DNA of 64,000 nucleotides, taken from Thermodesulfobacteriota bacterium. GTDB taxonomy: Bacteria; Desulfobacterota; BSN033; UBA1163. Of this stretch, positions 6,482 through 46,922 are shown in pieces; the stretch's first letter is position 1, and each line of letters opens with the position of its first letter. The notes below the pieces were generated by a model. That model saw only the letters and a program-made list of their open reading frames with translations, did not search any database and was not told the DNA's origin. The stretch covers positions 15,321 to 79,320 of the forward strand of contig JBEKUZ010000004.1 of assembly GCA_049514515.1 (NCBI GenBank), written 5' to 3'. Position numbers and translations under genes: made by a program.

Positions 6482-6670
6482 TTATCTTATGAAAGGGATT
6501 CCGAGATCCTTGCAGATCTTCCGGGCGAGCTTGTCGTTGATCTCGGCGTGACGGGGGACGGAAGAGCGTCGGTTCTGCTGCGGGTTGCCCCACCATGAAT
6601 GACTCCCGCCTTCGCGAATGAATACACAGCCTTGCTCATGCAGGTGCTTGAGCAACTCCGTGCGCTTCAT
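6482..6670 (-). CDS. hicA: HicA-family toxin (mRNA interferase)
   Basis: 62 aa. HicA/YcfA-like signature (LLKHLHEQGCVFIREGGSHSWWGNP). 4-nt ATGA overlap with the upstream hicB-like gene. Confidence 0.75.
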   Translation of the reverse strand: MKRTELLKHLHEQGCVFIREGGSHSWWGNPQQNRRSSVPRHAEINDKLARKICKDLGIPFIR

Positions 6671-6879: not shown

Positions 6880-7024
6880 GTTCTGTCACCTCAACTCCAT
6901 AATACCATTTCTCATTTTCGTTGTCCATGTACACAACAACCCTCTAGAAAAACCCTCTCACTACAATCTGGGAGCGGCTTTCAGGGATCTCTTTCACCTC
7001 TCCCCAGCGCGAGGCCGTAGTATT

Positions 7025-7102
7025 CAGAGCATCCTGAAAGCTGTCATGCTTTCCAACTCACTGGTTTTGCGTGAGATCGACTTTTTCTACAGGCTCAATG
7101 CC
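7025..7102 (+). repeat. ~78-bp dispersed direct repeat, copy 1
   Basis: CAGAGCATCCTGAAAGCTGTCATGCTTTCCAACTCACTGGTTTTGCGTGAGATCGACTTTTTCTACAGGCTCAATGCC. About 80% identical to 11311-11390, same orientation. Confidence 0.8.
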
Positions 7103-7123
7103 GGACAGCTCCTTATGGGTTTT

Positions 7124-8869
7124 TCAATCATTCATCTGATATTCTCCGTTCAGAGGAAATACATATTTCTCCCAGACACGGCTAACCTGCACGTCATCCC
7201 CCACGGTCCTGATCAGCATAATCTCCCGGCAAAAGTCCCTTTGATCCGCTTTGGTCGTATTCATGCCGTAGATCTGCAGGGCAAATGAGGCGAAGTCCCT
7301 GACCATGAAATCGAATATCTGGTTGAGGATGTCCTTATCCAGATTTTCAATGCCGGACTGTTCAAGAATCAATTGACCATAGACCACAATAGAAAACATC
7401 TCACCAAGGGGTAACGAGAAGGAAGAATCCATATCCTGCTTCTGATCCGGATAAGCTTTGTTCAAGAACTCCTTGAAGAGTTCGATCTGCTTGATGAAAA
7501 CCGCCACATTCGGCAGATCTTTATACGAATCGAAAGTGGATTGATAGTCGTGAAACCGGACATTACCCAGGCCTTTGGCCGGTCCCTGGTTGAACAGGAA
7601 CAAATCGTCTTTGGTCGAAAGGTCGGGTTGCATCGGAGGATGATCGACAGGATTGAAAAAATAATTCTTCATGAACTTGCGGATAAGCTGAATGTTGACA
7701 TGCACAGTGCCTTCAAGCTTGGACGGACCTCGAATTTCGCTGGTGCCCGTGAAGAAGTAGGTGTCCTTCTCAAAACCCTTGGCGGCAATGACATCCCATA
7801 GCAGATTGATAACTTCTTCGGCCTGAAGGGTGACCTTCATCTTGCTCGTGGGATTGTAAAGGAGATAACGCCGGTCTTTTTCATTGGCATTCCGGAAATA
7901 GTCGGTGGCCCGGCGCTGGTAGAGCTTCATCCCTACCAGGCGGAGCCAGGCGTCCATAAAATTTTTTCTCACATGGGGCATATCGGTAACACGGCGGTCA
8001 TAGAGGATACGGTTGGAGGCATGGGTGATGGCCTCGTAAAAACAATGCTCAGCCACCCCGATGGAAGCCGGGCCGATATTGAATTTCCCGATATTGACCG
8101 TATTCAGAGCGGTATCCCAAGCCGCCGAACCCCGCGAGAGGAGGTCTTCTTCCCTGATGGGGTAATCATGAAGGGCGAAGTTGGACACATATTGCTGATG
8201 GGAAATGACGTTCTTTTTCAACTCGTAGGCTTTATGGCGGTAATTGGTGACGAAAAAGGCATAGTCATCTGTGCCGTCCTTTATTTTGCCCATGGTCGAA
8301 ACCATCTCAGCCTCGTTCCCGTTTCCGATATAGTATTTCTCTCCATTGGCAACCCAGGTGCCGTCTCCTTTTGGTGTGAGTGTCGTATCCGCACTGTAGA
8401 TGTCGGCGCCGTGAGCTCTTTCAGACAGGCCGAAAGCAAAGATCGCCCCTCCCCTGAGAAGCTTGGCCGCTTTCTGCTTGGCCTTCTCATTCTTACTCAT
8501 CCAGATGGGGCCCAAGCCGAGGATGGTCACCTGGAAGCAATACCAGTAACCCAGGCCATAAAAGGCCAGGAGTTCGCTGTAGGCGTTGTTGCGGGCCGTA
8601 TCCCAACGGCAATCCGGATCACCGTCACTATAGATCTTGGGTGTAAGCAACTTGGAAAAGATCCGTTCTTTTTTGATAAAATCGACAAACTCCTTGTACC
8701 AGACCTTCTTATTGAAATCATCGAGGAGCCTGGCCTTTCCCATGCTCTCGAAGAATTGGATTGTCTTTGTCATAATGGTCCGCGAATTTTCATCGACCAT
8801 GAGGCCTGTGTATTTTTTAGGTTGAAGCAGGAAGTTCATTTTTCGCTCCTCTCCTGATCCATTGGTCAT
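7124..8869 (-). CDS. Acyl-CoA dehydrogenase family protein (long, ~580 aa)
   Basis: ACAD middle and C-terminal signatures (AFGLSERAHGADIYS..., GNGNEAEM...). Length class resembles AidB/large ACADs. Confidence 0.75.
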   Translation of the reverse strand: MTNGSGEERKMNFLLQPKKYTGLMVDENSRTIMTKTIQFFESMGKARLLDDFNKKVWYKEFVDFIKKERIFSKLLTPKIYSDGDPDCRWDTARNNAYSELLAFYGLGYWYCFQVTILGLGPIWMSKNEKAKQKAAKLLRGGAIFAFGLSERAHGADIYSADTTLTPKGDGTWVANGEKYYIGNGNEAEMVSTMGKIKDGTDDYAFFVTNYRHKAYELKKNVISHQQYVSNFALHDYPIREEDLLSRGSAAWDTALNTVNIGKFNIGPASIGVAEHCFYEAITHASNRILYDRRVTDMPHVRKNFMDAWLRLVGMKLYQRRATDYFRNANEKDRRYLLYNPTSKMKVTLQAEEVINLLWDVIAAKGFEKDTYFFTGTSEIRGPSKLEGTVHVNIQLIRKFMKNYFFNPVDHPPMQPDLSTKDDLFLFNQGPAKGLGNVRFHDYQSTFDSYKDLPNVAVFIKQIELFKEFLNKAYPDQKQDMDSSFSLPLGEMFSIVVYGQLILEQSGIENLDKDILNQIFDFMVRDFASFALQIYGMNTTKADQRDFCREIMLIRTVGDDVQVSRVWEKYVFPLNGEYQMND

Positions 8870-9111
8870 TTTCTAAAGATAGGGCAATTAATGGTCCAAG
8901 GAAAAAACCTGGCAGGATTTGGTCTCAGCTTTTGGCAAGGTCCTGTTGATTGCAGAAGTCTGGCCCTCTCCACTCCGGCAGTCTTTTTTGCCGTGTCCGA
9001 CTTAAGCACCTTGTTATAAGTCTGATGTTTCAGTAAGAAATGATATCTTACTTGCCTTCGCCAGGTCTCCAACTTTGAGCCAATAAATTAATTTTCTCAA
9101 CTCTGAATTTT

Positions 9112-9300
9112 CTAATTGCTAGTAACGTAGCCCTTTTCGCGAATGTCTTCATCATCCAGATAATGAGATAGATTTGAGTGCACATTCTCTAAGTTATCTA
9201 TTGAGAGTGCCTCGATTTTCTTTCGAGCAACTGAAGCATGTAGCTCTCCATTTGATAGACCCTCTAGGATGGAGACGAGTTCTTCGATTTTTGATTTCAT
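9112..9300 (-). CDS. Small hypothetical protein (62 aa)
   Basis: ORF only. Sigma-54-like promoter TGGCGT-N5-TTGC about 50 nt upstream on the minus strand. Confidence 0.3.
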   Translation of the reverse strand: MKSKIEELVSILEGLSNGELHASVARKKIEALSIDNLENVHSNLSHYLDDEDIREKGYVTSN

Positions 9301-9483
9301 GTTTTGTTCTTTATAACGACTCGCTTAACCTGCGCGCGCAACCTGCCGCCCGCAAACCTAACGCCAATGCCGAATCTTGCAGGGTCTGGTCTCAGCTTTT
9401 GATAAAGTCCTCCTTTTGAGATCTGATCCTCATCACTCTTCCCTATGATGAGGTCGGCGGACTGTCGGGCATCCGTTGATTCG

Positions 9484-9702
9484 TTACGCCGCCACTGTGT
9501 GAACGTCGGATGGAAGTCTGCTAAGAATCAATTCCTTTAATTGAATCTTCTTGCTGGCGTTATCAATATCAATACCCACCAAATTGCCTTCGGCATCATA
9601 ATCAAGCACGACACCTTCAGAAATCTCCTTGCTCTCGACGCTCGTTTTCTCCGAGAGATCGATATACAGGGAATCGGTCTCCGGGTAATAGTTGAGTTTC
9701 AT
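9484..9702 (-). CDS. DUF2283-family protein (putative antitoxin partner)
   Basis: 72 aa (MKLNYYPETDSLYIDLSE...EGVVLDYDAEGNLVGIDI) typical of DUF2283. 4-nt overlap with the upstream DUF4258 gene. Confidence 0.6.
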   Translation of the reverse strand: MKLNYYPETDSLYIDLSEKTSVESKEISEGVVLDYDAEGNLVGIDIDNASKKIQLKELILSRLPSDVHTVAA

Positions 9703-9941
9703 AGCTTGTACCTCCTGTCAAAAAAAGCATTGTGAATCGTTTTTTTATCTTCCAAAGTCACTACTCGTAAGACACGGCCTTCAAGTTCATCGATTATACC
9801 CCAAAATCGAAAACGCTTAGGTTCCTGAGGTTCGATCTTGAGCGGGTTCTCAATGACGCGAATACACCATTCCCTCTTGAGATATGGACGTTTCCTCAAA
9901 ACCTCTTTATCAAAATATTCTGTAAATCTATATTCAGCCAT
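9699..9941 (-). CDS. DUF4258-family protein (putative toxin partner)
   Basis: 80 aa. The DUF4258/DUF2283 pairing is a recurrent two-gene TA-like module. Confidence 0.55.
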   Translation of the reverse strand: MAEYRFTEYFDKEVLRKRPYLKREWCIRVIENPLKIEPQEPKRFRFWGIIDELEGRVLRVVTLEDKKTIHNAFFDRRYKL

Positions 9942-10249: not shown

Positions 10250-11200
10250 TTAGACGACCAGCATTCCAAGAGATGCAATAAGCAAGGCCGAAACAAATTC
10301 TTGGAGCGTATTCGTAACATTTAACAAGTCGATGGATGCCTTCTCTGGTTTGCCAGTATGAAGTATTTGGCTGCGTAAATCGTAACAGTAGATGAAAAAG
10401 CGTTCCGCTGACATTCCCCCGTAATCGCGACTTCCCAATAAGCGCTTCACGAGCTTTCTGCCACTTTGCCTTATTGATTCGTATTTCAGCCACTGTAGGC
10501 TACCCATGAATGACTCTTTTGTTTCTGCCAACATGGCAGAGCGCCGTACCAATTCTGACATATTCTCTACGATAGCTTTGTCCAATTCGGAGCGTTCAGC
10601 AAGCTCAAGTACAGCCTCAATCGACGTCACTAGAGTGATAAGCCTACTCCGGAGGGATACATCAAAGGATGAGGCACAATACAGCTCAAACGCCAATAAT
10701 TGTTTCTCAGTCAGAACGGGGTGCTGGCCAAATGTTTCAGAAAATTGGCCAACGAAGGTAGTTGGATCTTTACCAAGCGTGAACTGGGCGTTCATACGAA
10801 CAAACACCATACCATCTTTGTGTTCGTATATGTCTACACCGTGTACGTCATTCCGAACGGGACGTTTATACATTTCTTCAAACATCTTTATTCCGGTACT
10901 TGTTACGACGCCCCGCAACCGCCCATCACCGAAATCAATCCCGACTCTCTGTCGAACCGCCCAAGCCAAGAGAGCTGCTTTTACCCGTTCAACTGCCTCT
11001 TTCGCCTGTTCAACGGAAGAATACGGGCCGCCTATAACAGCTGCATCTGGGAAATCTTTTATTGGATTTCCTATTCCACCTGACCGGATTCGCAGCTTTT
11101 TACCATCTGCTTCTTCGAAGATCACTTGCTCTTCTGTGTCGATGTTGATACGAGTATCTTGCGAAAGGTGAAATCTAACTCGGAAATCAAAATTAGGCAT
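10250..11200 (-). CDS. Uncharacterised protein (316 aa), C-terminal R-x4-H HEPN-like motif
   Basis: No family recognised. C-terminal ...YDLRSQILHTGKP contains Rx4H. Last gene of the repeat-bracketed segment. Confidence 0.5.
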   Translation of the reverse strand: MPNFDFRVRFHLSQDTRINIDTEEQVIFEEADGKKLRIRSGGIGNPIKDFPDAAVIGGPYSSVEQAKEAVERVKAALLAWAVRQRVGIDFGDGRLRGVVTSTGIKMFEEMYKRPVRNDVHGVDIYEHKDGMVFVRMNAQFTLGKDPTTFVGQFSETFGQHPVLTEKQLLAFELYCASSFDVSLRSRLITLVTSIEAVLELAERSELDKAIVENMSELVRRSAMLAETKESFMGSLQWLKYESIRQSGRKLVKRLLGSRDYGGMSAERFFIYCYDLRSQILHTGKPEKASIDLLNVTNTLQEFVSALLIASLGMLVV

Positions 11201-11310
11201 ATTTACTTACCGTTCGCCTAACGAGCCTGTGGGAAAAACCCCTCACTGCGCTTAGGGGGTGGTTTTCGGGGGTCTCTTGACCCCTCCTCAGCATGAGACC
11301 GTCGCATACA

Positions 11311-11390
11311 GAGCATGCTGAGAGGTCGCATTTTCTTCCACTCGTTGGTTTCGCGCGAGATTGACTTTTTCTACAGCCTCAACGCTAAGG
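11311..11390 (+). repeat. ~78-bp dispersed direct repeat, copy 2
   Basis: CAGAGCATGCTGAGAGGTCGCATTTTCTTCCACTCGTTGGTTTCGCGCGAGATTGACTTTTTCTACAGCCTCAACGCT. Matches 7025-7102. Confidence 0.8.
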
Positions 11391-11441
11391 CTCACCGGGA
11401 GCCGGATTTATCGGCGATCCGGTAGCGCCTTGTTAGGTGCT

Positions 11442-11876
11442 TTATTTTTTTCCCATAGAGAGAAATATCTCTAGTGGAAGTCTTGCCCACTGGCTCTTAT
11501 GCATAGGCTCTAATGGTTCCAATTGTTGCAGCGATTTTAATGGCGTTAACTTCTGCAATCCCTTTAGACGTTCAAGTTTTGTAAGCTTATTAACAGCGCC
11601 TTCGATAAAACCAACCGCATAGCCCTCGTGATCCCAGATTATACCTTTTTTAAACCAGCCAAGATGCTTCCCGTTAAACCCATAAATGGATTCTCCGTCT
11701 AGATACGCGACTGGCTCGCCCTTCCATAGATAAATATTCATCTCATCTTCCGTATCAATATACGCGACCGCTTCACCAGCGTCGTCAAATAATGAAATTT
11801 CACGGGCATACCCAATGGCAGGGACCAATAAAAGGATGACCAGAAAGGTTGCTAACAATCTCGTGACTTTCATTGT
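11442..11876 (-). CDS. Secreted hypothetical protein with internal Y-x-D/G repeats
   Basis: Start moved to MKVTRLLATFLVILLLVPAIGYA (signal peptide) with AAGGAGA 6 nt upstream. The ORF-track start at 11987 is unsupported. Repeats AVAYIDTEDE / PVAYLDGES / YAVGFIEG. Confidence 0.5.
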   Translation of the reverse strand, partial: TMKVTRLLATFLVILLLVPAIGYAREISLFDDAGEAVAYIDTEDEMNIYLWKGEPVAYLDGESIYGFNGKHLGWFKKGIIWDHEGYAVGFIEGAVNKLTKLERLKGLQKLTPLKSLQQLEPLEPMHKSQWARLPLEIFLSMGKK

Positions 11877-11983
11877 CGTCTCCTTTGCACCTAACGGAAA
11901 GCTCAGCCAGAGGCAGGCGCCGTTTCCTGCCGATTGGCTGCAGCGCCGGGTTAGAGCTTTCATGGACACTGTCGAGAGATTCC

Positions 11984-12856
11984 TCATGGGGATGTGTCCA
12001 CGGCCCCTATCAACTCAGGTTTCACAAAGGCTTCGAGGTCTGCCAAGAAATCCTCGACCCCGTTGCCGCGCCTTGAGAAGCACTTTGCGATAGGCATTCC
12101 AGTTCGAGCCTTCGCTATGCGCCGCCTCATCTTTTCGACACGCTCCGCCCAGGGGCCGTCGAGAAGAACATAATCGCAGCAATTCACCGACATGGCTGCG
12201 TGCTGAAGGTCAATAGCGTCGTTTTCGGAGATCGGTGCTTTGCAGTCCAGAACATAGCCGCGTATCAGCTCCCCCAAAATCACTTTTGTTCTTGGTCGCC
12301 TGTCATCTGGAACTGCATTGCGAGCTTTGCGGACGTAGCTTGGTTCTAGGCGGATACTTTCTATCCGCTTGATAATCTCCACAGCAACACGATCAGTCGA
12401 TTTAACAAGTTCGGTCCCATACTCGTAAGCCACCGAAATGAAGCCGCGCATAGTGAACCCAAAGGGGGCATTTTGCGCACGCTCACAGAAGAACTTGAGT
12501 GTCGGAAGATCAGCGGACGGCCAAAACCGCCTCTGGTTGTTGGAATCAGCTCGTTCCTGCTCTAGGACCTTGTCTAGGGCGAAATCTGTGAAGAAAACGT
12601 TCGGTAACAACCTCTCGATGAAAGCTTCGGTGTCGCGGCAATGACGAGCATCCGTAGCGCGGACGAACTCGACCAACGAAAGATTAGACAGAAGGAGGGT
12701 TCCTCCCTTCGACATGAGGGCTTTCACAAACCGATCTTGGATACCCGGGTCGTCAGAGAATACTCGAATTGCCCAGTGATCAAAATAGACAGTTGGTGGG
12801 TCAAAGCTCTGCCTCGCGTGAACACCGTCGGACGCTACTAAAAACTCAATGGGCAT
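11984..12856 (-). CDS. Uncharacterised protein (290 aa)
   Basis: No recognisable family. Possible PIN-like pattern, very uncertain. First gene of a three-gene minus-strand operon. Confidence 0.45.
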   Translation of the reverse strand: MPIEFLVASDGVHARQSFDPPTVYFDHWAIRVFSDDPGIQDRFVKALMSKGGTLLLSNLSLVEFVRATDARHCRDTEAFIERLLPNVFFTDFALDKVLEQERADSNNQRRFWPSADLPTLKFFCERAQNAPFGFTMRGFISVAYEYGTELVKSTDRVAVEIIKRIESIRLEPSYVRKARNAVPDDRRPRTKVILGELIRGYVLDCKAPISENDAIDLQHAAMSVNCCDYVLLDGPWAERVEKMRRRIAKARTGMPIAKCFSRRGNGVEDFLADLEAFVKPELIGAVDTSP

Positions 12857-13118
12857 TTGACGGATCCTTGATGTATCATTCTATGGCTCTAACAATTAAT
12901 AGACGAAGTTCCGATTTGTTTCCAATCGGTCCTCCTAAGTCTACCTTATTACCACTTTTTACACATGGTGTCTATAAGTCAATCGATTGTATTCCGGATA
13001 ATAAAGGAGCACTCTCCGCGGGAGAAGTCCCGTGGATCAAAAGCCGTCATAATAAATTCCAAGATATTGAATTGTCCCAACAACTAATGCAAACGCGTTT
13101 AATCACTTTACATGTAGC

Positions 13119-13159
13119 GCAAGGCTTTAGCCTTGCTTAAAGCAACCCTAAAGGGTTGC
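13119..13159. promoter_or_regulatory. Twin 7-4-7 palindromes GCAAGGC-TTTA-GCCTTGC / GCAACCC-TAAA-GGGTTGC upstream of uvrA
   Basis: Two adjacent perfect palindromes with the shared frame GCAA-N3-TWWA-N3-TTGC, about 70-110 bp upstream of the uvrA start. Candidate operator (for example an SOS-type repressor). Confidence 0.35.
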
Positions 13160-19753: not shown

Positions 19754-22231
19754 ATGGCAAAAGACCCAAACAGAGTCATTTCCGAGCTACATAAAGGAAG
19801 ATATATACCCATCCAAAACATAAAGAGAAAGAAAATAGCTACCCATTTAGCAGATCGGAAAACAACTCGACCCCTCAAAAACTCGGCCATTACCATGCCC
19901 TTACTTGCTAAACAGATGGAGGAGGCACTGCGTCGGAGTGAGGAGAAATACCGAACCATCATTGAGAACATGCAGGAGGGTTATTATGAGCTTGACCTTG
20001 CCGGTCGTTTTACCTTTGTTAATGACGCGCTTTGCAAACATCTCGGATATACCAAAGAGGAATTGGTCGGGACGCGCGCCCGACAGTATCAAGATGAAAC
20101 AACCACTAAGAAAATGCATCAGATATTCACCGAACTCTACAGAACAGGGGAACCGGTTAAGGCATTAGAGTCGGAATATATCAGAAAAGACGGCACCAAA
20201 GGGACTTACGAACTGTCGGTATCTCTTCTACGGGATGCACAAGGCAAACCCATCGGATTCCGGGGTGTTTCTCGGGACATCACCGAGCGCAAGCAGACGG
20301 AGGAGGCACTGCGAAGAAGTGAGGAGAAATACCGAACCATTCTTAAAAACATGGAAGAGGGTTATTACGAAGTAGACCTTGCCGGTAATTTCACCTTTGT
20401 CAATGATGTCATCTCCAGACATCTCGGGTATACCAAAGAGGAATTGATCGGGATGAACTACCGGAAGTATGCGAGCGAGGAAACCTCTAAAGAGTTGTAT
20501 CAGCACTTTAGCGAACTCTACCGAACAGGCCAACCGATTAAGCCATTCGCGGTGGAATATATCAGGAGAGACAGAACCAAACTGATTTCTGAAATTTCGG
20601 TATCTCTTATAAGAGACCTCGAAGGGAAGCCGATCGGGTTTCGTGGAATCTCGCGCGATATCACCGAGCGCAAACAAGCAGAGGAGACATTGCGGAGAAG
20701 CGAGGAGAGATACCGAACCATTATCGAGAACCTCCAGGACGGCTATTTTGAGAACGACCTTGCCGGTAATTTAACCTTTGTGAACGATATCATCTGCCGA
20801 AATCTCAGATATACCAGAGAGGAACTAATCGGGATGAATTACCGGCAGTATACGGACGAGGAAGACCGTAAAAAGGTGCTTCAACTTTATGGCGAACTGT
20901 ACAGAACAGGGCAGCCTGTTAAGTCATTGGAAGTAAAACATGTCAGAAAAGATGGGGCCAAACTGTTTGCCGAGATCTCGTCATCTCTTATACGGGATTC
21001 GGAAGGAAAACCGATCGGGTTTCGAGGCATCTCGCATAACATCACCGAGCGCAAGCAGGCAGAAGAGGAGAAGTTATCTCTTCAAGAGCAGCTTCGGCAG
21101 GCGCAGAAAATGGAGGCCGTTGGCCAGTTGGCAGGGGGGGTGGCTCACGACTTTAACAACCTCCTGACCGTTATCAAGGGCTACAGCCAACTTTCCCTCT
21201 TCGACCTTAAAGAAGATAACCCCCTTTGGGGAAACATCCAAGAGATTGAAAAAGCCAGTCAACGGGCAACGGATCTAACTCGCCAACTTTTAGCCTTCAG
21301 CCGTCGTCAGATCTTGGACCTCAAAGTGGTCGATCTCAACGTCCTCCTAGAAGATCTGGAAAAGATGCTGCGCCGGATCATCGGCGAGGACATTACATTG
21401 GCCACTCTTCTATCCGAAGGTTTAGGAAAGGTCAAAGTAGATCCGGGTCAGATCGAGCAAGTGATCCTCAATTTAGCCGTAAACGCCAGGGATGCAATGC
21501 CCTCCGGCGGGAAACTCACCATCGAAACGGCGAATGTGGAGTTGGACGAAGAGTATGCCCATGCCCATGTCAATGTGGCCCCGGGTCGATATGTGAGGCT
21601 TTCCGTCAGCGATACGGGGGTTGGGATGACACCGGAGGTGAAAGAAAAGGTCTTCGAGCCCTTCTTTACGACTAAAGAAAAAGGAAAGGGGACCGGATTG
21701 GGCCTCTCCATGGTTTACGGAATTGTCAAGCAGAGCAATGGGAATATCTGGCTTTATAGTGAACCGGGGCGTGGGACCACCTTCAGGATTTATTTTCCAA
21801 GGGCGGAGGAAGAGGCAGATGGTCTTCATAAGGAAGAAGTAACGGATGTCTTTCCGAGGGGTAGTGAGACAATCCTTCTGGTGGAGGACGACGAATTGGT
21901 GCGAAACCTGGCAACCCGACTTTTAGAGCAGCAGGGCTACAGGGTCTTGAAGGCAACCAACGGCCAAGAGGCGCTGCGCGTCGCGAAGGAACATGTCGGA
22001 GAAACGATCCACCTCCTGCTGTCTGACATTGTGATGCCTCAGATGGGTGGAAAAGAGTTGTCCGATTGGCTTAAAATCTCGCGGCCCAACGTCAAGGTCC
22101 TTTATACCTCGGGTTATGCGGACGATGCGATTGTCCACCACGGTGTGCTGGACCCGGGGACCCATTTCTTGCAGAAACCTTTCTCTCTCAAAACGTTATC
22201 ACACAAGGTACGCGAAGTATTGGATGAGTAA
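19754..22231 (+). CDS. Hybrid sensor histidine kinase with multiple PAS domains and C-terminal receiver domain
   Basis: Repeated PAS units (EEALRRSEEKYRTI...GYTKEEL...YRTGQP...), HisKA (VAHDFNNLLTVIKGY), HATPase_c (GTGLGLSMVYGIV), REC (ILLVEDDELVRNL...LLSDIVMPQMGG). Confidence 0.9.
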   Translation: MAKDPNRVISELHKGRYIPIQNIKRKKIATHLADRKTTRPLKNSAITMPLLAKQMEEALRRSEEKYRTIIENMQEGYYELDLAGRFTFVNDALCKHLGYTKEELVGTRARQYQDETTTKKMHQIFTELYRTGEPVKALESEYIRKDGTKGTYELSVSLLRDAQGKPIGFRGVSRDITERKQTEEALRRSEEKYRTILKNMEEGYYEVDLAGNFTFVNDVISRHLGYTKEELIGMNYRKYASEETSKELYQHFSELYRTGQPIKPFAVEYIRRDRTKLISEISVSLIRDLEGKPIGFRGISRDITERKQAEETLRRSEERYRTIIENLQDGYFENDLAGNLTFVNDIICRNLRYTREELIGMNYRQYTDEEDRKKVLQLYGELYRTGQPVKSLEVKHVRKDGAKLFAEISSSLIRDSEGKPIGFRGISHNITERKQAEEEKLSLQEQLRQAQKMEAVGQLAGGVAHDFNNLLTVIKGYSQLSLFDLKEDNPLWGNIQEIEKASQRATDLTRQLLAFSRRQILDLKVVDLNVLLEDLEKMLRRIIGEDITLATLLSEGLGKVKVDPGQIEQVILNLAVNARDAMPSGGKLTIETANVELDEEYAHAHVNVAPGRYVRLSVSDTGVGMTPEVKEKVFEPFFTTKEKGKGTGLGLSMVYGIVKQSNGNIWLYSEPGRGTTFRIYFPRAEEEADGLHKEEVTDVFPRGSETILLVEDDELVRNLATRLLEQQGYRVLKATNGQEALRVAKEHVGETIHLLLSDIVMPQMGGKELSDWLKISRPNVKVLYTSGYADDAIVHHGVLDPGTHFLQKPFSLKTLSHKVREVLDE
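19918..21051 (+). repeat. Three tandem 378-bp repeats encoding PAS modules
   Basis: Units at 19918-20295, 20296-20673 and 20674-21051, each starting GAGGAGGCACTGCG.AG.AG.GAGGAGA.ATACCGAACCAT and ending ATCACCGAGCGCAAGCAG.C. Roughly 75-80% nucleotide identity. Confidence 0.85.
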
Positions 22232-26320: not shown

Positions 26321-26425
26321 ATGTCATGCTGAACCCTGAAGGTGTCATGCCGAACTCTGAATGTGTTATGCCGAACGCCCAAAGTGTCATGCCGAACGCC
26401 CAAAGTGTCATGCCGAACTTGTTTC
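26321..26425 (+). repeat. Tandem 21-bp repeat array (GTGTCATGCCGAACGCCCAAA x about 5)
   Basis: Units at 26342, 26363, 26384 and 26405, with a degenerate copy at about 26321. Ends in the palindrome ATGCCGAA-cttg-TTCGGCAT. Lies about 100 bp upstream of the first pseudopilin gene. Confidence 0.8.
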
Positions 26426-26529
26426 GGCATCTCTCCAGGGCAGGCTTGTTTCAGCATTTGGTTCATTCTTTTCCCGCTGTCAGCAGACGCAGTATTAATA
26501 AACCTTCGGACCCTCGACCCCTTGAACCC

Positions 26530-38938: not shown

Positions 38939-41570
38939 CGACGGCCCTTTTGCGTCGCCCGACCCATCCCAGACCAACACAACCTAAAATTCCCAGGATG
39001 GTTGCTCCAATACCCAACTTAAAACTCAAGGGATCATAAACAAATTCTACCTGATGTGTCCCGACACTCAGAGGAATTGCTCTGAATGTATAATCGGCCC
39101 TATATATTTTGGTTTCTTTCCCATCCACGAAAGCCTTCCACCCCGGATAGTAAGTATCGCTCAATACCAGCAGGCAATCTTTGGGAGCCTTCACCTGAAG
39201 GTCTAACCGGTTATTGCTCTCCGTCAAGATTTGGGCCTTCTGAGGGAGCCCACTGAGCGGCTCCCCTACATCATTCGTTCTTCGTAGGGGCGGCCCTCTG
39301 CGGCCGCTCTGGCTTGGGGTGGCTTCTTCCCCCTTTGCAAAAGGAACGGCGTGGGAACTTATCCATTTGGGTTCTTCTTCAAGAAAAACCTCCTGACCCG
39401 GACGAAATTCATTCTGGAGCATCATCAAAAGCATTTTTTGTAAGTCCATCACTTTGAAGTCTTTTACAAGCCATGCTCTCGGAAGAGGGCTGCGATTTTT
39501 ATATAGCTTTATGGTATTCTCTTTAAGGAGATCTTCCCTCTTTCCCTGAAGCCCTTCAAGGTTTGCATAAATCAACTCAAATTTATGGTTTTTCTCAAGA
39601 AGAGTAACAGAGGTAATATATTTCACACCGTAAAGATCTATGAGTTGCGTTGCTGAAATAGAAGGAGTACTGACAAAAATTCTATAAAGATCATCCGTTC
39701 GTTTTACTCGAATGACGTCAGCTCCCCAAAGGTCATGTAACTGATACAGGAGATTCATAGAAGGATAATGTTTTTCCTTCAATGTATTAAGAAATGAAGG
39801 GTCTCCAACCAAAATTGTAGCGTCTTGCGAAATAGTTTTGGCAGTTGAAAATACTCTAAAAAAGCCTTTGTCCGAAGAAATTGTTTTCAATATTTCAGTC
39901 TTTTGAAAATAGTCCGACGCTTTTTCTTTCCAGTAGTAGCCCATATTACCAAACAGGTCTGTTATCAGGAAAAGGATCAATAGAAGTTTTGTCCAACCCT
40001 TCCATTTCTTCTCGTAGCCGGTCCTTAGCAAGAGAAAGAAAAGAGCCAAGTAGAAGAAAAATCTTTTCGTATGGAAAAGGTTTGCAGAGAGATAATTGAA
40101 TTGCGGAAAATCAATCTCTCTTAGTTTCAAATATTGTTCAATACTTCTATGGCCTAAAGCCAGAAATAAAAGGAGTAGACCACTGATGAGAGAAAGCGTT
40201 GTGAGAAGGTTTTTAATTCTCTTCCCTCCACCCTCTTTTGAGAGATCGAACAACCGCTGAAACCCCATGCCTGCTGTAACAGAGAGGAGGAGAATAAAAA
40301 TATAGAGAAATTTTGCAGGATACCGGATTCCATTGAAAAATGGAATGTACTTAAAAACAAAAGGGTAGAGAGGATTGTAAGCGCCTAACGATAGAAAGAT
40401 CGAGAAGATCATGAGAATGAGAAAGAGCATCTTGTTGTCTTGGTGCGCTTCCGTTCGATCCTTTTCTTCAGAGGATAAGGTGCGGCGATGGGGCATGAGA
40501 AAGAAGATCAAGCTCAGTATAAAGGGAAGTCCTCCCGTATAGAGCGTTTTGAACCAGCATTGAACGGTCCAATATTTTTTCATATCTAAAAAATATCCAT
40601 AGGCATCGGGAAGAAAGAATAGAAGAATATCCTTGGGCGCAAAACTCCATGTGGTTGCTTCTTGATAGGAAATTCCATTTCCCCTGATAGAGTGATGAAA
40701 CAATTCGACAAAAGGGAATAATTGAACTGCGGAGAGAAACAAAAAGAGAATGGAAATAACCAAGAGACTTCTTATTCGTCCCCAATAAATGGGGGCGCTA
40801 CGGACGAATTTGGAAATGGAAAGGCTAAAAGGGGATTTGTGGCGTCGGGGTTTATCCCCGACAGAGTTGGCATATGGAAAGGGGGAGAAAATCACCATGA
40901 TTAAGAGAACAAAAAAATTACCATAGACAATTTCTATCCCTCCGCCCAAAAAAGAAATAGTGATCAGAATAGCCGTAAAAATCTCATTTTTTAAACCCCG
41001 TCCGTTGATCGCCCTTCTGAAAAACATCATGATCAAAGGCGTCCAGATACTCGAAAGGAGAATGGTCAGCAAACTATGGACGGAAAGGAGATACCCGCTG
41101 AGCATAAATGTCAGGCCCGAGATAAGGGAACCTGTTGCATTTATCTTAAAGTCTCTAAGGAGAAGGTAGGTGAATAATCCGCCCAAGAAGAAATGAAGAA
41201 TGATGATGGCATTAAAGGCCACATCGAAGGGGAGAAGAAAAAAAAGACCATTTAAGGGATAAAGGAGGGCATGCTGGGGGTTAGCAAAGAAGGGTTGGCC
41301 GGAGAATTGATAGGGATTCCATAAAGGGAAACTTCCATGCTTGATGCTTTCGACCCAGAAGAATCGCGGTGGAATGAAATAAGGACCTAAATCCCTTTCT
41401 ATGAGCAGAAACCTTTTCTCAAGGAGGTCATAAAAAAAGAACAGGGATAAAAAGAAAAGGGCCAGAACAGCCAAGAAATCCGGTGATCTGACCCATCCTA
41501 TTTTTTCTCTAATCTTTTCAATCACAAGGAGGCTGGTTTTACTGTATTCCTTCCTTATAAATCTCAACAA
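38910..41570 (-). CDS. YfhO-family polytopic membrane protein (GT-C-like putative glycosyltransferase)
   Basis: N-terminal region with GPYF...LWNPYQFSGQPFFANPQ..LYP, typical of YfhO. More than 12 TM helices plus a C-terminal periplasmic domain. The track start at 41570 is TTG without an SD, so the exact start is uncertain. Confidence 0.65.
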   Translation of the reverse strand: MLRFIRKEYSKTSLLVIEKIREKIGWVRSPDFLAVLALFFLSLFFFYDLLEKRFLLIERDLGPYFIPPRFFWVESIKHGSFPLWNPYQFSGQPFFANPQHALLYPLNGLFFLLPFDVAFNAIIILHFFLGGLFTYLLLRDFKINATGSLISGLTFMLSGYLLSVHSLLTILLSSIWTPLIMMFFRRAINGRGLKNEIFTAILITISFLGGGIEIVYGNFFVLLIMVIFSPFPYANSVGDKPRRHKSPFSLSISKFVRSAPIYWGRIRSLLVISILFLFLSAVQLFPFVELFHHSIRGNGISYQEATTWSFAPKDILLFFLPDAYGYFLDMKKYWTVQCWFKTLYTGGLPFILSLIFFLMPHRRTLSSEEKDRTEAHQDNKMLFLILMIFSIFLSLGAYNPLYPFVFKYIPFFNGIRYPAKFLYIFILLLSVTAGMGFQRLFDLSKEGGGKRIKNLLTTLSLISGLLLLFLALGHRSIEQYLKLREIDFPQFNYLSANLFHTKRFFFYLALFFLLLRTGYEKKWKGWTKLLLILFLITDLFGNMGYYWKEKASDYFQKTEILKTISSDKGFFRVFSTAKTISQDATILVGDPSFLNTLKEKHYPSMNLLYQLHDLWGADVIRVKRTDDLYRIFVSTPSISATQLIDLYGVKYITSVTLLEKNHKFELIYANLEGLQGKREDLLKENTIKLYKNRSPLPRAWLVKDFKVMDLQKMLLMMLQNEFRPGQEVFLEEEPKWISSHAVPFAKGEEATPSQSGRRGPPLRRTNDVGEPLSGLPQKAQILTESNNRLDLQVKAPKDCLLVLSDTYYPGWKAFVDGKETKIYRADYTFRAIPLSVGTHQVEFVYDPLSFKLGIGATILGILGCVGLGWVGRRKRAVVSKPPDPLL

Positions 41571-41618
41571 TCAATTCAAGACCGTCGTGTTACCATGTGC
41601 TACAACAATAGAACACCT

Positions 41619-41664
41619 CCAATAAACACCCTTTCCTTCTCTCCGTTGAGAGAAAGGAAAGGGT
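41619..41664 (-). terminator. Intrinsic terminator after pilin gene 1
   Basis: Minus strand: CACCCTTTCCTTTCTCTC-aacgg-AGAGAAGGAAAGGGTG followed by TTTATT. Confidence 0.6.
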
Positions 41665-41703
41665 GAGGAGAACATTTTGGATATAAGTTTGCCTATCCCT
41701 CTA

Positions 41704-42075
41704 TTACCACGTAGTATGTGCCGGACAGGTAATATTGGGGGGGGTAGCTGCATCTATTGAAAAACTATACGTAGCCGCTCCCACGGTTATAGTCAGATAG
41801 GTAGCATCTGAGCCAGCAACTTGAACTCCCTGCACTCCGGCAGAACCAACAATGCCCGTCCAATCCTCCGTAGTGGTTGTAACGTTCAATACGCGAGCTG
41901 CATACAATAGGGTATTCGCGGCTCTAAGGCCTCCTAATACCCCCCTTGCCGTGCCATCTTGAGCTTGAGTTGTCAAATCGACATATCTTGGGATGGCAAC
42001 TGCCGCAAGAATCCCGATGATCACAATAATTACGATTAACTCAATTAACGTGAAGCCCCTCTGATGTCTTAGCAT
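41704..42075 (-). CDS. Type IVa major pilin (MshA/PilA-like), copy 1
   Basis: MLRHQRG|FTLIELIVIIVIIGILAAVAIP. AAGGAG RBS. The start is trimmed to match the 7-aa leader of copy 2. Confidence 0.85.
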   Translation of the reverse strand: MLRHQRGFTLIELIVIIVIIGILAAVAIPRYVDLTTQAQDGTARGVLGGLRAANTLLYAARVLNVTTTTEDWTGIVGSAGVQGVQVAGSDATYLTITVGAATYSFSIDAATPPNITCPAHTTW

Positions 42076-42169
42076 ACATGCTCCTTTCCAAATCTTCAAG
42101 ATAAAACCCTTCCTGTAACGGAATTTTCTCTAAAATGAACTGCAGTCGTAAGCAACAACAGAGCACCTG

Positions 42170-42216
42170 CAATAAACACACCCTTTCTTTCTCTCCGTTA
42201 AGGGAAAGGAAAGGGT
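42170..42216 (-). terminator. Intrinsic terminator after pilin gene 2 (duplicate of the 41619-41664 terminator)
   Basis: Same long GC-rich hairpin plus TGTGTTTATT on the minus strand. Confidence 0.6.
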
Positions 42217-42255
42217 GAGGAGAACATTTTGGATATAAGTTTGCCTATCCCTCTA

Positions 42256-42627
42256 TTACCACGTAGTATGTGCCGGACAAGTAATAATGGGGGGAGTACC
42301 CGTATCCATTGAAAAACTATACGTAACCGCTCCCACGGTTATAGTTAGATACTGAGTACCTGAACCAGAAACTTGAACTCCCTGCAATCCGGCAGAACCA
42401 ACAATGCCCGTCCAATCCTGCGTAGTGGTTGTAACGTTCAATATGCGAGCTGCATATAACAGGGCATTCGCGCTTCTAAGGCCTCCTAATATCCCCCTTG
42501 CTGTGCCATCTTGAGCTTGAGTTGTCAAATCGACATATCTTGGGATGGCAACTGCCGCAAGAATCCCGATGATCACAATGATGACGATCAACTCAATTAA
42601 TGTGAAGCCCTTCCGATTTTTAAGCAT
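42256..42627 (-). CDS. Type IVa major pilin (MshA/PilA-like), copy 2
   Basis: MLKNRKG|FTLIELIVIIVIIGILAAVAIP. About 85% identical to copy 1. GGAGGAG RBS. Confidence 0.85.
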   Translation of the reverse strand: MLKNRKGFTLIELIVIIVIIGILAAVAIPRYVDLTTQAQDGTARGILGGLRSANALLYAARILNVTTTTQDWTGIVGSAGLQGVQVSGSGTQYLTITVGAVTYSFSMDTGTPPIITCPAHTTW

Positions 42628-42722
42628 ATTTTCTCCTCCTTGTCGAGAATTTATTGGTATTCACTCCATTTTGCACAATTTAATATCAGCTTGGAAATTC
42701 CTTGTCAAGTGAATTAGTTAAC

Positions 42723-42739
42723 AGCAATATTTATGCCAG
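42723..42739 (-). promoter_or_regulatory. Sigma-54-type (-24/-12) promoter candidate for the pilin genes
   Basis: Minus strand CTGGCAT-AAATA-TTGCT matches TGGCAY-N5-TTGCW, about 85-100 nt upstream of the pilin-2 ATG. A sigma-70-like TTGACA-N17-TATTAA lies just upstream as an alternative. Confidence 0.5.
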
Positions 42740-42897
42740 TCGAATCCAAAATTGGCAAAATCATTATACTAATAAAAAAATAAATGATTTCAAATAGTTA
42801 GTTGATGGCGGGTAGTTATTTTGAATTTAACAAGGATCAGCTTGCTAAGAAAAATGGACAAATTTTGCATGTTGGACAAAAATTGTTCGTTTTTTTG

Positions 42898-44041
42898 GTA
42901 ATTATTTACTTGACACACAAGAATTTTTATGCTACATTAATCTTAACAAATACTTGAAAGGAATATCTCATGGAAACAACAATTCAATTCCCAAAAACCT
43001 TACAGGAAGCAATCGCCTACTTTTCTGATTCTGACCGATGTTTTGAATATGCGGTAAAACTTAGATGGCCGAATGGAAAAATCACTTGCCCCCGTTGCGG
43101 ATCGGATAAACACTCTTTCATTTCAACACGTCGCCTTTGGTGGTGCAAGGGTTGCAAACAACAATTCACCATGAAAGTAAATACCATCTTCGAGGATAGC
43201 CCTCTTGGTATGGATAAATGGATGACTGCCCTTTGGTTGTTAGTGAATTGTAAAAATGGAATCAGTAGTTGCGAAGTCGCCCGTGATCTTGGAGTTACAC
43301 AAAAGACTGCATGGTTTATGTTACATAGACTACGCCTTGCTATGCAGACCGGATCATTCTCTAAACTTGGCGGAGAAGTTGAGGTTGACGAAACATTTAT
43401 TGGTGGCAAGGCCAGAAACATGCATCCCCAAAAGAAGAGCCTTAGAGTTACCGGAAGAGGGGGGAAGGATAAAGTCCCCGTTATGGGAATCTTGGAGCGT
43501 GGCGGAGAGGTTAGGACAGCCATCGTCCCAAGCCGGAAGAAGAAAGTTCTTCAAAACGAAATCAAGAAGCATGTTAAGGCAGGAAGCGCACTTTATAGTG
43601 ATGCCTTGCGGTCTTATGATGGGCTTGATTCAGAATTTGCTCACAAAGTCATTGACCACGCCGTTGCATACGTTGACGGTAAAGTCCATACAAACGGCCT
43701 TGAAAACTTCTGGAGTCTTTTGAAACGTAGCTTGAAGGGGACCTATGTCAGTGTAGAACCTTTTCATCTCTTCCGTTACTTGGATGAACAGAGTTTTCGT
43801 TTTAACAATCGGAAAGAAATGAATGATTCGGAAAGATTTGAAGAAGTGATGAGCCAAGTTTTAAATCGTCGCGTTACCTTTAATCAACTCACTGGCAAAG
43901 AAATTTCTACGACGCAACTCAATTAACCACAAACGTCAAGGACGGGGCAAGCGAAAGAAAAACTAACTCTTTCGCCTATGCCCTGTCTTACATTTTTTCT
44001 CTGCTTCTTTAATTTCGGACTTTGGTACCTTAAATAATTTC
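42898..44041 (+). mobile_element. IS1595-family insertion sequence (single transposase ORF). The ends are approximate.
   Basis: A DDE transposase with an N-terminal zinc ribbon fills the interval. Imperfect terminal inverted repeats GTAATTATTTAC (left) / GAAATTATTTAA (right, reverse complement). Transposase terminator hairpin at 43943-43995. No clean target-site duplication recognised. Confidence 0.5.
42970..43926 (+). CDS. IS1595-family transposase
   Basis: N-terminal zinc ribbon (CPRCGS...CKGC) + DDE domain (...VEVDETFIGG...YSDALRSYDGL...HAVAYVDGKVHTNGLENFWSLLKR). Confidence 0.9.
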   Translation: METTIQFPKTLQEAIAYFSDSDRCFEYAVKLRWPNGKITCPRCGSDKHSFISTRRLWWCKGCKQQFTMKVNTIFEDSPLGMDKWMTALWLLVNCKNGISSCEVARDLGVTQKTAWFMLHRLRLAMQTGSFSKLGGEVEVDETFIGGKARNMHPQKKSLRVTGRGGKDKVPVMGILERGGEVRTAIVPSRKKKVLQNEIKKHVKAGSALYSDALRSYDGLDSEFAHKVIDHAVAYVDGKVHTNGLENFWSLLKRSLKGTYVSVEPFHLFRYLDEQSFRFNNRKEMNDSERFEEVMSQVLNRRVTFNQLTGKEISTTQLN

Positions 44042-44103
44042 TTTAATGTGTTCTCAAAGTTCGTCTTTGCTTTGTTGCCTTCAATCATTTTAGGTTTCAT
44101 AAC

Positions 44104-45030
44104 TCACTCCGATAATTTAATTGAAAGACCTTCAAGAAATTCCTTTGTCCTCTCCATAATGCTAAGCGCTGGTTCTTCATCGTAGCTTTCCCTTGCATGG
44201 GCAACAAATATACGGTAACCGTTTTTAAAATGTCTAAATTGAGAAGCGGCTTCTGAACAAAATTTCAGTTCTTCGTCTCTTGCTGTACTTCTGGGAAGTT
44301 GTTGCTGTGTTTCTATTTTTTTTTCAATCTCTTTTATGAGAGCATTCCATTCAGCAAGATTAATCTCAAAAGGGAAAATCACGTTTAAATGTTGAGCCAA
44401 TGCCCGCAAACCTATTTCTGCTGCTCGCATTGAATGAAATACAGAAGCAGTATATTCACCAACAGTAAAAGAGTTCCCCGCATGTTGCAATTCCCTTAAC
44501 GCTTTTGGGAAAAAAGATATAAAACGCTCATTGAAATCTGATCGTTCGTAATATTTAGCTCGATGGGATGGAACAAAAAAGAATAGATGTTGACTCATTT
44601 CGACCTTAACTGCTTTTATTAATATCTCTAAAGTTTCTGAATTGCTTGGCGGAATGTCAAGTGCATCTTTTAATAAAGTTGAAGCGATTTTAAGATGCAT
44701 ATTATCACAATGGGTTTTTAATTTATTCAATAATTTTATAAAATCTATTTTCTCTTGATCTGTCAAAACCATTTCTTTATCTAACTCGCCAATATGGAGA
44801 CAAATTCCAATATCGTTGATCGTTTCTCCCATTTCTATGTATTCACTTGCTGCAAATTTAAGCATGTCTTCTAAACTCCAAAGTCGGAAAGGATTTTTGA
44901 CCCATGGCAATAGATGATCGTCCGAATCATTATCGCTTAATGAGGTTTGTGTGTCAAGTATAAATGGTTGGGGAAGATCAGGAGATTTTCGACGAGAAGA
45001 AAAAAATTCTTGCATTTGGCATACCTCCAT
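44104..45030 (-). CDS. Uncharacterised protein, possible HEPN-like (R-x4-H) domain
   Basis: Low-GC (~35%) gene. ...MRAAEIGLRALAQHLNV contains Rx4H. No confident family. Confidence 0.4.
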   Translation of the reverse strand: MEVCQMQEFFSSRRKSPDLPQPFILDTQTSLSDNDSDDHLLPWVKNPFRLWSLEDMLKFAASEYIEMGETINDIGICLHIGELDKEMVLTDQEKIDFIKLLNKLKTHCDNMHLKIASTLLKDALDIPPSNSETLEILIKAVKVEMSQHLFFFVPSHRAKYYERSDFNERFISFFPKALRELQHAGNSFTVGEYTASVFHSMRAAEIGLRALAQHLNVIFPFEINLAEWNALIKEIEKKIETQQQLPRSTARDEELKFCSEAASQFRHFKNGYRIFVAHARESYDEEPALSIMERTKEFLEGLSIKLSE

Positions 45031-45130
45031 GCTAAGATTTGGTTAGTACGGCCAAATGCGTTAGTTCTAAGGAAATCGGACTGCCATCCGATCTTCTTAT
45101 TCCTTCCGACGAGCGTTAATCCATAATAGC

Positions 45131-45787
45131 ATGGAGGACGCTCGGATGCAAGTCTTATTGTCTTTTAAACAACAAAAAATACTTAGAGCAATTAAAATCG
45201 TGTTCCCAAAAGTCAAAAATACGTGGCAATATTTTGAATCCCCTGGATATGTAGGGGTATTCGGTGCCATGACTTTATTTTATTTATCAGTAACACAGGG
45301 GCATATATACGTTGGATTATCTATCATAATTCTTGGAATATTTTTTGGATTTCTGGCTTCTTATAATTCAGGTAGACATAAATCAACTGACTTGGTTGAT
45401 GAATATGAAGAAAGATTTTTTATAAGAATGAAAGCAGAAAGGAAACATGCCGCCCAATACTTATTGGGAGAAATAAAAAACAATGCTTGCCTAAAATGGG
45501 TTCTTGATTACCTTGAAGCTCCAATAGCAGAAAAAGTTGTTAAAGAGCAAATTGATACTATGCAAGTTTACAGTTATTTCCGGCACTGGATCGAGTTGTA
45601 TTGGCAAGCAAGCCAAAAAGACATTCAGATATACCGCAAGAATGATCCTGGCGCGTGGCCAACATTAGGTAAGCTCTATAATATTATGATCACTCTTGAG
45701 AAAAAAGAATTAGGAGAACGATACGTCGGTTGGAATGAAGAACGTGTTGAGGAAGCATTAAAAGACGAAGCAAGTCTTGTGCTATAG
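45131..45787 (+). CDS. Uncharacterised membrane protein (2 predicted TM helices)
   Basis: Low-GC gene divergent from the gene at 44104-45030. TM hairpin GYVGVFGAMTLFYLSV...LSIIILGIFFGFLASY. Confidence 0.4.
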   Translation: MEDARMQVLLSFKQQKILRAIKIVFPKVKNTWQYFESPGYVGVFGAMTLFYLSVTQGHIYVGLSIIILGIFFGFLASYNSGRHKSTDLVDEYEERFFIRMKAERKHAAQYLLGEIKNNACLKWVLDYLEAPIAEKVVKEQIDTMQVYSYFRHWIELYWQASQKDIQIYRKNDPGAWPTLGKLYNIMITLEKKELGERYVGWNEERVEEALKDEASLVL

Positions 45788-45845
45788 TTCCATTTTGTCC
45801 AGTCTCAACCTCTGTGTGTCAAATATATAATTACCGTTTTTTTCA

Positions 45846-46922
45846 TTATCGGCGAGGACTTTCTCCCCTTATCTTTATTAATTCTGCTACAATGCTGACA
45901 GCGATTTCCTCAGGGGTTTCGGAGTTGATGTCAAGTCCGATGGGTGCGTGAACTCGTTCCAGCGTCTCTTTGGAGATTCCTTTTTTCTTCAAACTCTGAT
46001 AAAGAGTCTTAATCTTCTTCTTCGACCCTATCATTCCGATATACCGCGCGTTTGTCTTGATTGCCTGTTCCAGCACGAAGCCATCATAAAGATGACCTCG
46101 GGTGACGATGACAATATATGAGGAATCATCAACATCGAGTCGGTCGAAGCACTTCTCAAATTCTGACACGACGACTTCGTCCACTTCTGGGAAACGCTCT
46201 CGATTGGCAAACATCTCCCGGTCATCGATGACCATCACCCTGAAATGGACTTTCTTGACAAGAGGAGCCAACTGTTCAGAAATATGGCCTCCCCCAAAAA
46301 TATAGACCGTCGGCTCACAAAAAACGGGTTCCAGCAGGACTTCCACCTTTCTCTGTTCAGAATTTAAGACTGACATCTTCGGCCTTTTCTCTTTTAATAA
46401 TATCTTACCTTCACTCAAAAGCTTTTTCCGTAATTCCACTCCGCCAAATAAAGAACCGAACTTCTCTCCGGAAGTCTTCATCAATATCTTCGGGCCTTCT
46501 CTTTTTGGAAAATCAGCATCCACCGAGACCAGCGTAGCCAAAATAGCTGACCCGCCCTTCTGTCTTATCTTTGCCGCCTCCTGGTAGATGCTTAAGAAAT
46601 CTTCTTCAAGGGGTTCCAAAAAGATGTCAATATTTCCCCCGCAGATCAGCCCACCTTCTGCCAATTGCTCAGACGTAAGGTCGAAATGGAGAATTCGCCC
46701 CTTCCCTGTCTCCATCACTTTTTGAGCTTCTTGCCAAACCTCTGCCTCAACGCATCCTCCCCCAATAGAGCCGACAGAAGTTCCGTCTCCTTTAACCAAA
46801 TATTTCGCGCCCACTGCCCTGGGGGCAGAGCCTATCCGGTTGACCAGAGTAGCAAGTGCACACTTTTCTTTGTTCTCAAGGGCTCTCACTATATCAACGT
46901 ATATGTCCTGCACGATCCTCAT
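45846..46922 (-). CDS. xdhC: XdhC/CoxI-family molybdenum-hydroxylase accessory protein
   Basis: XdhC_CoxI N-terminal domain + XdhC Rossmann C-terminal domain (VYIFGGGHISEQLAPL). Confidence 0.85.
   Translation of the reverse strand: MRIVQDIYVDIVRALENKEKCALATLVNRIGSAPRAVGAKYLVKGDGTSVGSIGGGCVEAEVWQEAQKVMETGKGRILHFDLTSEQLAEGGLICGGNIDIFLEPLEEDFLSIYQEAAKIRQKGGSAILATLVSVDADFPKREGPKILMKTSGEKFGSLFGGVELRKKLLSEGKILLKEKRPKMSVLNSEQRKVEVLLEPVFCEPTVYIFGGGHISEQLAPLVKKVHFRVMVIDDREMFANRERFPEVDEVVVSEFEKCFDRLDVDDSSYIVIVTRGHLYDGFVLEQAIKTNARYIGMIGSKKKIKTLYQSLKKKGISKETLERVHAPIGLDINSETPEEIAVSIVAELIKIRGESPRR

Follow-up and report, generated by a model that had tools for sequence, protein, structure and literature searches.

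The 64,000-nucleotide (nt) stretch of a Thermodesulfobacteriota bacterium analysed here (contig JBEKUZ010000004.1 of assembly GCA_049514515.1; hereafter the window) contains, downstream of uvrA, three adjacent open reading frames (ORFs) on the minus strand, which we label A, B and C (Table 1). A preliminary description of this DNA had taken the three genes, whose coordinates and common orientation agree with our six-frame ORF list, for a tightly spaced operon that encodes a candidate novel defence or conflict system. Our analysis suggests another view of the locus. We consider it likely that it is not one system, and that a variable stretch downstream of uvrA carries three genes of independent origin which lie side by side amid small toxin-antitoxin (TA) pairs. 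Gene B belongs to a known protein family, and A and C are new, uncurated families inside known superfamilies rather than a new kind of system.

Table 1. Genes, spacers, protein domains and catalytic motif of the A-B-C locus, with positions in the window.
Feature	Position	Strand	Description	Basis
Gene A	11984-12856	minus	290 aa	six-frame ORF list
Gene B	11442-11876	minus	144 aa; 181 aa if started at the upstream in-frame ATG at 11987	
Gene C	10250-11200	minus	316 aa	six-frame ORF list
A-B spacer	11877-11983	minus	holds the AAGGAG ribosome-binding site of B	
B-C spacer	11201-11441	minus	241 nt; copy of a ~140-nt intergenic repeat, strong hairpins	
C, N-terminal alpha/beta domain	10796-11200	minus	residues 1-135	structure model
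C, C-terminal HEPN domain	10253-10783	minus	residues ~140-316	structure model
C, RSQILH	10358-10375	minus	R276-H281; Rx4H catalytic motif of the HEPN domain	conservation

The three genes are spaced more loosely than had been described. The reported 4-nt overlap of the first two genes is produced by the in-frame ATG at 11987 and exists only for the longer version of B. With the shorter start (11876), A and B are separated by a gap of 107 nt, AAGGAG is located 6 nt upstream of the start and a signal-peptide-like segment is placed at the N-terminus of the protein. Among the A loci, only that of the closest A relative (85% identity) retains the B reading frame that runs into the stop of A, and a B gene itself is missing there; the remaining A loci lack this frame. 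The second gap, between B and C, holds the repeat copy that had been regarded as an edge of the operon, and the repeat therefore sits within the proposed operon.

This repeat is present in the window as two direct copies of an intergenic element (6960-7125 and 11240-11445; 78% identity in the extended alignment), each directly downstream of a minus-strand gene. Its core at 11277-11385 pairs with 6993-7101 at 76% identity. The B-C spacer has a folding energy of -86 kcal/mol (z -3.0 against shuffled controls), is unmatched in Rfam and is probably a transcript boundary or an RNA element. A scan for promoters and terminators came close to what shuffling predicts, with 7 promoter-like sites where 4.4 would be expected and 5 terminator-like sites where 3.5 would be, and the transcript structure is not settled by it. 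Separately, a 34-nt hairpin piece of the repeat (11390-11423) recurs at 91% identity in the metagenome locus L073 (1697-1730), where a C homologue follows ~60 nt downstream of it.

The occurrence of the genes elsewhere was followed by a pattern scan of one genome per species (about 185,000 species), which yielded 37 A loci, and by a scan of Joint Genome Institute (JGI) metagenomes, which yielded 80 C loci. A B-like or C-family ORF lies within 4 kb in none of the 37 A loci, neither A nor B is present in any of the 80 C loci, and no B-like ORF was found next to homologues of A or C. Co-occurrence in other genomes had been named in the preliminary description itself as a check of the trio, and the proposed three-gene operon and novel defence system do not withstand it. 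The nearest relatives provide a similar picture. The closest A relative has a ParE/Phd pair on one side and an FAA hydrolase gene on the other, a beta-flower gene of the B type is missing there, and its nucleotide homology with the window ends at 12893 and 11903. The closest C relative with a known context (68% identity) lies amid PemK, VapBC and Phd modules, and homology with it covers only 11223-10236. Since homology ends at the gene edges and the genes do not co-occur, each of them is its own unit of inheritance.

The genes that flank the homologues vary as well. No neighbour cluster is common to more than four A loci, and the four loci that do have common neighbours are from related Acidobacteria carrying the same serine-recombinase element. 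Among the 129 immediate neighbours of C, the only ones alike stem from near-identical contigs. The Pfam content of the neighbours is mixed, with 74 families in 105 proteins around C (none in more than two) and 102 families in 133 proteins around A (none in more than three).

A defence or conflict operon of three genes, in which a secreted protein and two nucleases cooperate, would suit the adjacency and common orientation of the genes, the TA modules close by and the nature of two of the products, C being a genuine HEPN protein and A a PIN-like nuclease; it is nevertheless very unlikely, as the trio recurs in none of the 37 and 80 loci, the nearest relatives of A and C are without the partners and their homology stops at the gene edges, and 241 nt of structured repeat separate B from C. 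Moreover, B is exported whereas A and C carry no export signal. A search of PADLOC, also proposed earlier for the trio, gave no match for A and C and only one chance-level match for B (MTase_II, E 0.018, in PADLOC-DB 2.0). As repeated co-occurrence was not found, a multi-gene operon or system of A, B and C is not supported.

Smaller or different groupings were also considered and rejected. A two-gene module of A and B is contradicted by the absence of B from all 37 A loci and by the end of the homology at 11903, before the start of B. A small ORF coupled to the stop of A, a candidate antitoxin, is present only in the 85%-identical relative, where DNA homology explains it, and is absent elsewhere. 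Downstream genes are kept in the four Acidobacteria loci with distant A homologues, and genome kinship together with the serine-recombinase element explains them. Finally, a conserved large partner upstream of C was considered, and the upstream genes of 800-1000 aa in the loci L012, L053, L063, L071 and L085 proved to be mutually non-homologous.

Gene B could be assigned to a family with confidence, and the earlier statement that none of the three proteins matches a nameable family was wrong in its case. It is a member of Pfam PF21784 (4-fold beta-flower, Bflower; E 7.5e-35, 120.2 bits against a cut-off of 25), and the match is full-length, with residues 28-139 of B on profile positions 2-116 of 116. 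This family, defined in 2023 from AlphaFold models, groups small beta-barrels that are exported or are lipoproteins, carry a [DNEQ]xxG motif in the hairpin turns and have no known function (Durairaj et al. 2023, PMC10584680). B resembles the family in its four hairpin repeats (DDAGEAVAYI, WKGEPVAYL, FNGKHLGWF and DHEGYAVGF), in a turn motif similar to [DNEQ]xxG, in the N-terminal export signal and in a C-terminal helical segment (PMC10584680); it shows no notable difference from it and is an ordinary member. The Y-x-D/G beta repeats noticed earlier in this protein are the same four hairpins, and the signal peptide reported for it agrees with a signal-peptide-like N-terminus identified by eye (MKVTRLLATFLVILLLVPAIGYA|RE, roughly residues 1-22). 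B would be exported by the Sec route and act outside the cytoplasm, and it has no evident connection to A or C.

Neither A nor C is homologous to a housekeeping family in Pfam, NCBIfam, PADLOC or PHROGs, or has any other match there. For A, 207 homologues were retrieved at E<=1e-3 from Desulfobacterota, Acidobacteriota, Nitrosomonas, Thiobacillus, Nitrotoga, Chlorobiaceae and others. They are unusually alike, with 52-85% identity to the query and a mean column identity of 67% across phyla, and a repeated search with the alignment returned the same family and nothing else. The AlphaFold 2 model of A, built with 66 sequences (predicted local distance difference test, pLDDT, 89.7; predicted template modelling score, pTM, 0.88), has the Rossmann-like alpha/beta/alpha fold of PIN domains. 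The PIN core comprises residues ~17-104 and 207-264, and an N-terminal beta-hairpin and a helical insert of ~105 aa (residues ~105-206) are additions to it. Invariant residues of the family (n=66 sequences) include D26, which ends the first core strand, S57 and E63 after the second, N212-D213 and H219 in an 'ENDxIDLxHAA' helix, and the stretch NCCD228-YVLLD233. Four of the acidic residues, D26, E63, D213 and D233, are invariant in all 66 sequences and are located, on the predicted secondary structure, at the end of beta1, in the helix after beta2, in the ND-AID-L-HAA helix and in the VLLD strand. We take this order and these positions to match those of the four acidic active-site residues of PIN.

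The best structural matches of A are the TA toxins VapC11, VapC-1 and VapC2. Foldseek comparison of the model with the Protein Data Bank (PDB) gave nothing significant (best E 0.19), and VapC entries had the highest probabilities among the weak matches. The PF01850 profile stays below its threshold for the A family, with E 0.1 at full length and E 0.0056 in two of 23 sequences from which the insert had been removed. A profile search of the PDB with the A alignment returned noise only, also with the insert removed, and an hhalign comparison with one VapC-like protein from locus L137 was uninformative. On the basis of the model, A is predicted to be a stand-alone PIN-like nuclease, and its family is a rare, strikingly conserved PIN variant that is missed by current profile libraries. 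The protein would be an endoribonuclease that depends on Mg2+ and works by means of D26, E63, D213 and D233. Instead of a VapB-type antitoxin, it is probably the insert and the N-terminal hairpin that govern substrate choice or self-regulation.

Gene C encodes a two-domain protein. Its structure model (pLDDT 89) consists of an N-terminal beta-sheet-plus-helix domain and a C-terminal alpha-helical domain of the HEPN fold; a profile search of the PDB with the C alignment gave noise only. Structural neighbours of the N-terminal domain are only generic ferredoxin-like modules, such as the C-terminal region of aIF2-alpha and the dimerisation domains of M20 peptidases, and the best structural matches of C are the HepT-type HEPN toxins 8xdj, 5yep and 7ae2. 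The motif YDLRSQILHTG, from which an R-x4-H of the HEPN type had been guessed, is present in the protein, and the guess is confirmed and strengthened by both the fold and the conservation. R276 (codon at 10373-10375) and H281 (codon at 10358-10360) are invariant in 99 representatives, and RSQILH is at least 90% conserved in 45 closer homologues. The only invariant positions in the 99 diverse relatives, which have 24-46% identity to the query, are E195, S242, Y273, R276 and H281, a pattern that one would expect if selection maintains a HEPN catalytic site.

The C family is large, with 2,868 clusters at E<=1e-3 and 801 at E<=1e-30 in a profile search of 1.84 billion cluster representatives, and the full architecture of ~315 aa is kept in nearly all of the best 150 clusters. 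The sub-threshold matches of C relatives in Pfam (HEPN_Apea in 2 of 99, E 0.005; HEPN_AbiU2 in 2 of 45) and in PADLOC (DzbB and Cas13-ApeA) point to no clan other than HEPN. C is predicted to be a stand-alone HEPN-type RNase and its family is a candidate single-gene HEPN module, so far uncurated. To our knowledge, all single-HEPN enzymes dimerise to form a composite Rx4H RNase site. C would dimerise in the same way, perhaps by means of its N-terminal ferredoxin-like fold, and each subunit would contribute its Rx4H motif (R276, H281) to a single RNase site. The N-terminal domain would thus be a dimerisation or sensing module, and the protein would act as a single-protein toxin or an abortive-infection-type RNase, in the manner of ApeA, AbiV and AbiU2.

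That the best structural matches of both proteins are TA toxins, that several A copies are degraded and that the surroundings are rich in TA genes would also fit A and C being orphan toxins of decayed type II TA pairs (VapBC-like and HepT/MntA-like), which have lost their antitoxin genes and are either inactive relics or curbed by antitoxins encoded elsewhere. This explanation seems improbable to us. A conserved small partner ORF adjoins A or C in none of ~120 loci, and a family-wide loss of the partner is difficult to reconcile with catalytic residues that stay invariant. VapC and HepT have less than half the size of A and C, whose extra domains are conserved full-length throughout the families. 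In addition, C has Thr two residues after H281, where HepT has Tyr (RX4HXY). In HepT, this position is the one that MntA AMPylates.

The distribution of A is patchy, its 37 species genomes out of ~185,000 being scattered over Acidobacteriota, Beta- and Gammaproteobacteria, Chlorobi, Nitrospirota and Desulfobacterota. Near its homologues we find large serine recombinases (L136 and L041) and IS66 and rve transposases, as well as an XhoI restriction enzyme, BrnTA and ParE/Phd TA pairs and a KAP NTPase; A itself gave no match in plasmids. About 8 of the 37 A copies are truncated, frameshifted or interrupted (L026, L032, L033, L046-L050). The presence of decayed copies while intact ones are 52-85% identical across phyla fits a recent horizontal spread followed by decay. 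A C homologue is the passenger of a Tn3 transposon on the Arthrobacter conjugative plasmid NC_019339.1 (L138, 2353-8740), where it is located directly upstream of a SIR2-family gene. Another, in L053 (982-4945), has its start 4 nt ahead of the stop of an MmeI-type restriction-modification gene (1008 aa). These two cases, one each, are suggestive of defence cargo. Other C homologues adjoin PemK and VapBC pairs, a DAC-domain conflict gene, a CHAT protease gene, or ArdC and a resolvase.

The same data bear on whether A or C, or both, might be ordinary cellular RNA-processing enzymes, that is, housekeeping PIN or HEPN RNases unrelated to conflict. Such a role would agree with the high conservation of the A family, with the many housekeeping genes among the neighbours and with the lack of matches in defence databases, but it is hard to bring in line with the patchy and phylum-scattered occurrence of A, with a synteny that is not conserved, with copies that adjoin recombinases and transposons and with the existence of pseudogenised copies, and we hold it to be decidedly doubtful.

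The best reading of the locus is that A and C each encode a predicted RNase as a single gene, move independently of each other and sit in a TA-rich variable stretch, where conflict-type nuclease genes are plausible; the two may serve phage defence, be selfish toxins of the addiction type or have some other role. Several observations weigh against this reading. Ordinary housekeeping genes are frequent next to the homologues of A and C, and such mixed neighbourhoods argue against a strong defence-island signal for either gene. For a conflict gene, the conservation of the A family is unusually high. Searches of phage genomes with A and C by tblastn gave no match, neither protein has relatives in PHROGs or a match in PADLOC, and C relatives match PADLOC models only below the threshold (DzbB in 9 of 99; Cas13-ApeA in 2 of 99, E 0.031). 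Judged from the sequence alone, A, B and C could also be co-transcribed in this organism.

The TA modules on which the earlier island context rested were partly borne out. HicAB is present (HicA gene at 6482-6670), but 3.4 kb away and past an acyl-CoA dehydrogenase gene. In the module described as DUF4258/DUF2283, the DUF2283 gene lies at 9484-9702 (E 6.5e-19), whereas the overlapping 80-aa ORF at 9699-9941 on the minus strand, which had been labelled DUF4258, has no Pfam match at E<=1. None of the six local proteins searched against PHROGs was matched. A 39-nt direct repeat (8906-8944 and 9373-9411, 82% identity) flanks a 62-aa ORF at 9112-9300 that has no assigned family. Between A and uvrA, gene callers have annotated an ORF of 85-89 aa in public assemblies (12871-13137, plus strand); it has no Pfam or PHROG match, lies outside the homology block common with the nearest A relative and may be spurious.

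The guanine-plus-cytosine (GC) content shows no anomaly in the A-B-C region. Farther along the window, it falls to 0.37-0.43 across 40000-46000, against ~0.48 elsewhere in the window, and this segment, which also contains a 300-nt direct repeat (41626-41925 and 42178-42477, 91% identity), may be foreign or mobile. Repeats with a period of 381 nt are present inside an 825-aa PAS-domain gene (19910-21162), and a 21-nt tandem repeat of 4-5 copies is located at ~26.3 kb (26322-26426).

A more far-reaching proposal can be made for the two families. C may represent a large family of compact HEPN RNases (~315 aa; at least 2,800 clusters at 50% identity) with a dedicated N-terminal sensor or dimerisation domain. 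The family would then be a new anti-phage or abortive-infection system that works alone (a 'mini-ApeA'), and A would likewise be a new single-gene PIN-type defence nuclease in which the helical insert replaces the antitoxin. We put this forward only tentatively, as a conceivable but rather uncertain extension. The proposed three-gene system, on the other hand, should leave any list of candidate defence systems. What remains are two uncurated families, each within a well-known nuclease superfamily, and the C family is the more useful of them. It is widespread, has a fixed two-domain architecture and an invariant Rx4H, is always alone and is met as cargo of transposons, plasmids and islands. These traits make it a reasonable and cheap candidate for single-gene screens of phage defence or toxicity, and it is also suited to be added to the HEPN clan as a new Pfam family.

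Comparison with known systems places both proteins beside, rather than within, the established groups. A differs from VapC (PF01850) in its length (290 aa against ~130 aa) and in the possession of the ~105-aa insert, the N-terminal hairpin and the invariant NCCD motif. It does not reach the PF01850 threshold and no VapB-like gene adjoins it in any locus, so that neither the profile score nor an adjacent antitoxin places it in the PF01850/VapBC group.

C looks structurally most like HepT, with no match at the sequence level, and it differs from the HepT/MntA (HEPN-MNT) toxins of type II/VII TA systems (e.g. SO_3166, PDB 5yep, 8xdj, 7ae2) by an extra N-terminal domain of 135 aa. An MNT gene adjoins neither C, whose neighbours in the window are B and the 80-aa ORF, nor any of ~85 C homologues, and no nucleotidyltransferase is among the 25 families listed of the 74 found in the 105 immediate neighbours of C homologues; C is accordingly not counted as a HepT/MntA member. 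The window C protein has no match at E<=1 to PF18739 (HEPN_Apea) or to the PADLOC models, including Cas13-ApeA, and does not belong to the ApeA family by profile. ApeA, a single-protein anti-phage system, joins an N-terminal domain to a HEPN domain at its C-terminus (Gao et al. 2020; bioRxiv 10.64898/2026.03.20.713152). In comparison to ApeA, which has ~600 aa, C is compact (316 aa) and its N-terminal domain is a small ferredoxin-like fold. Like ApeA, C is a single gene with no conserved partner, and in both proteins a homodimer would be needed to form the active site.

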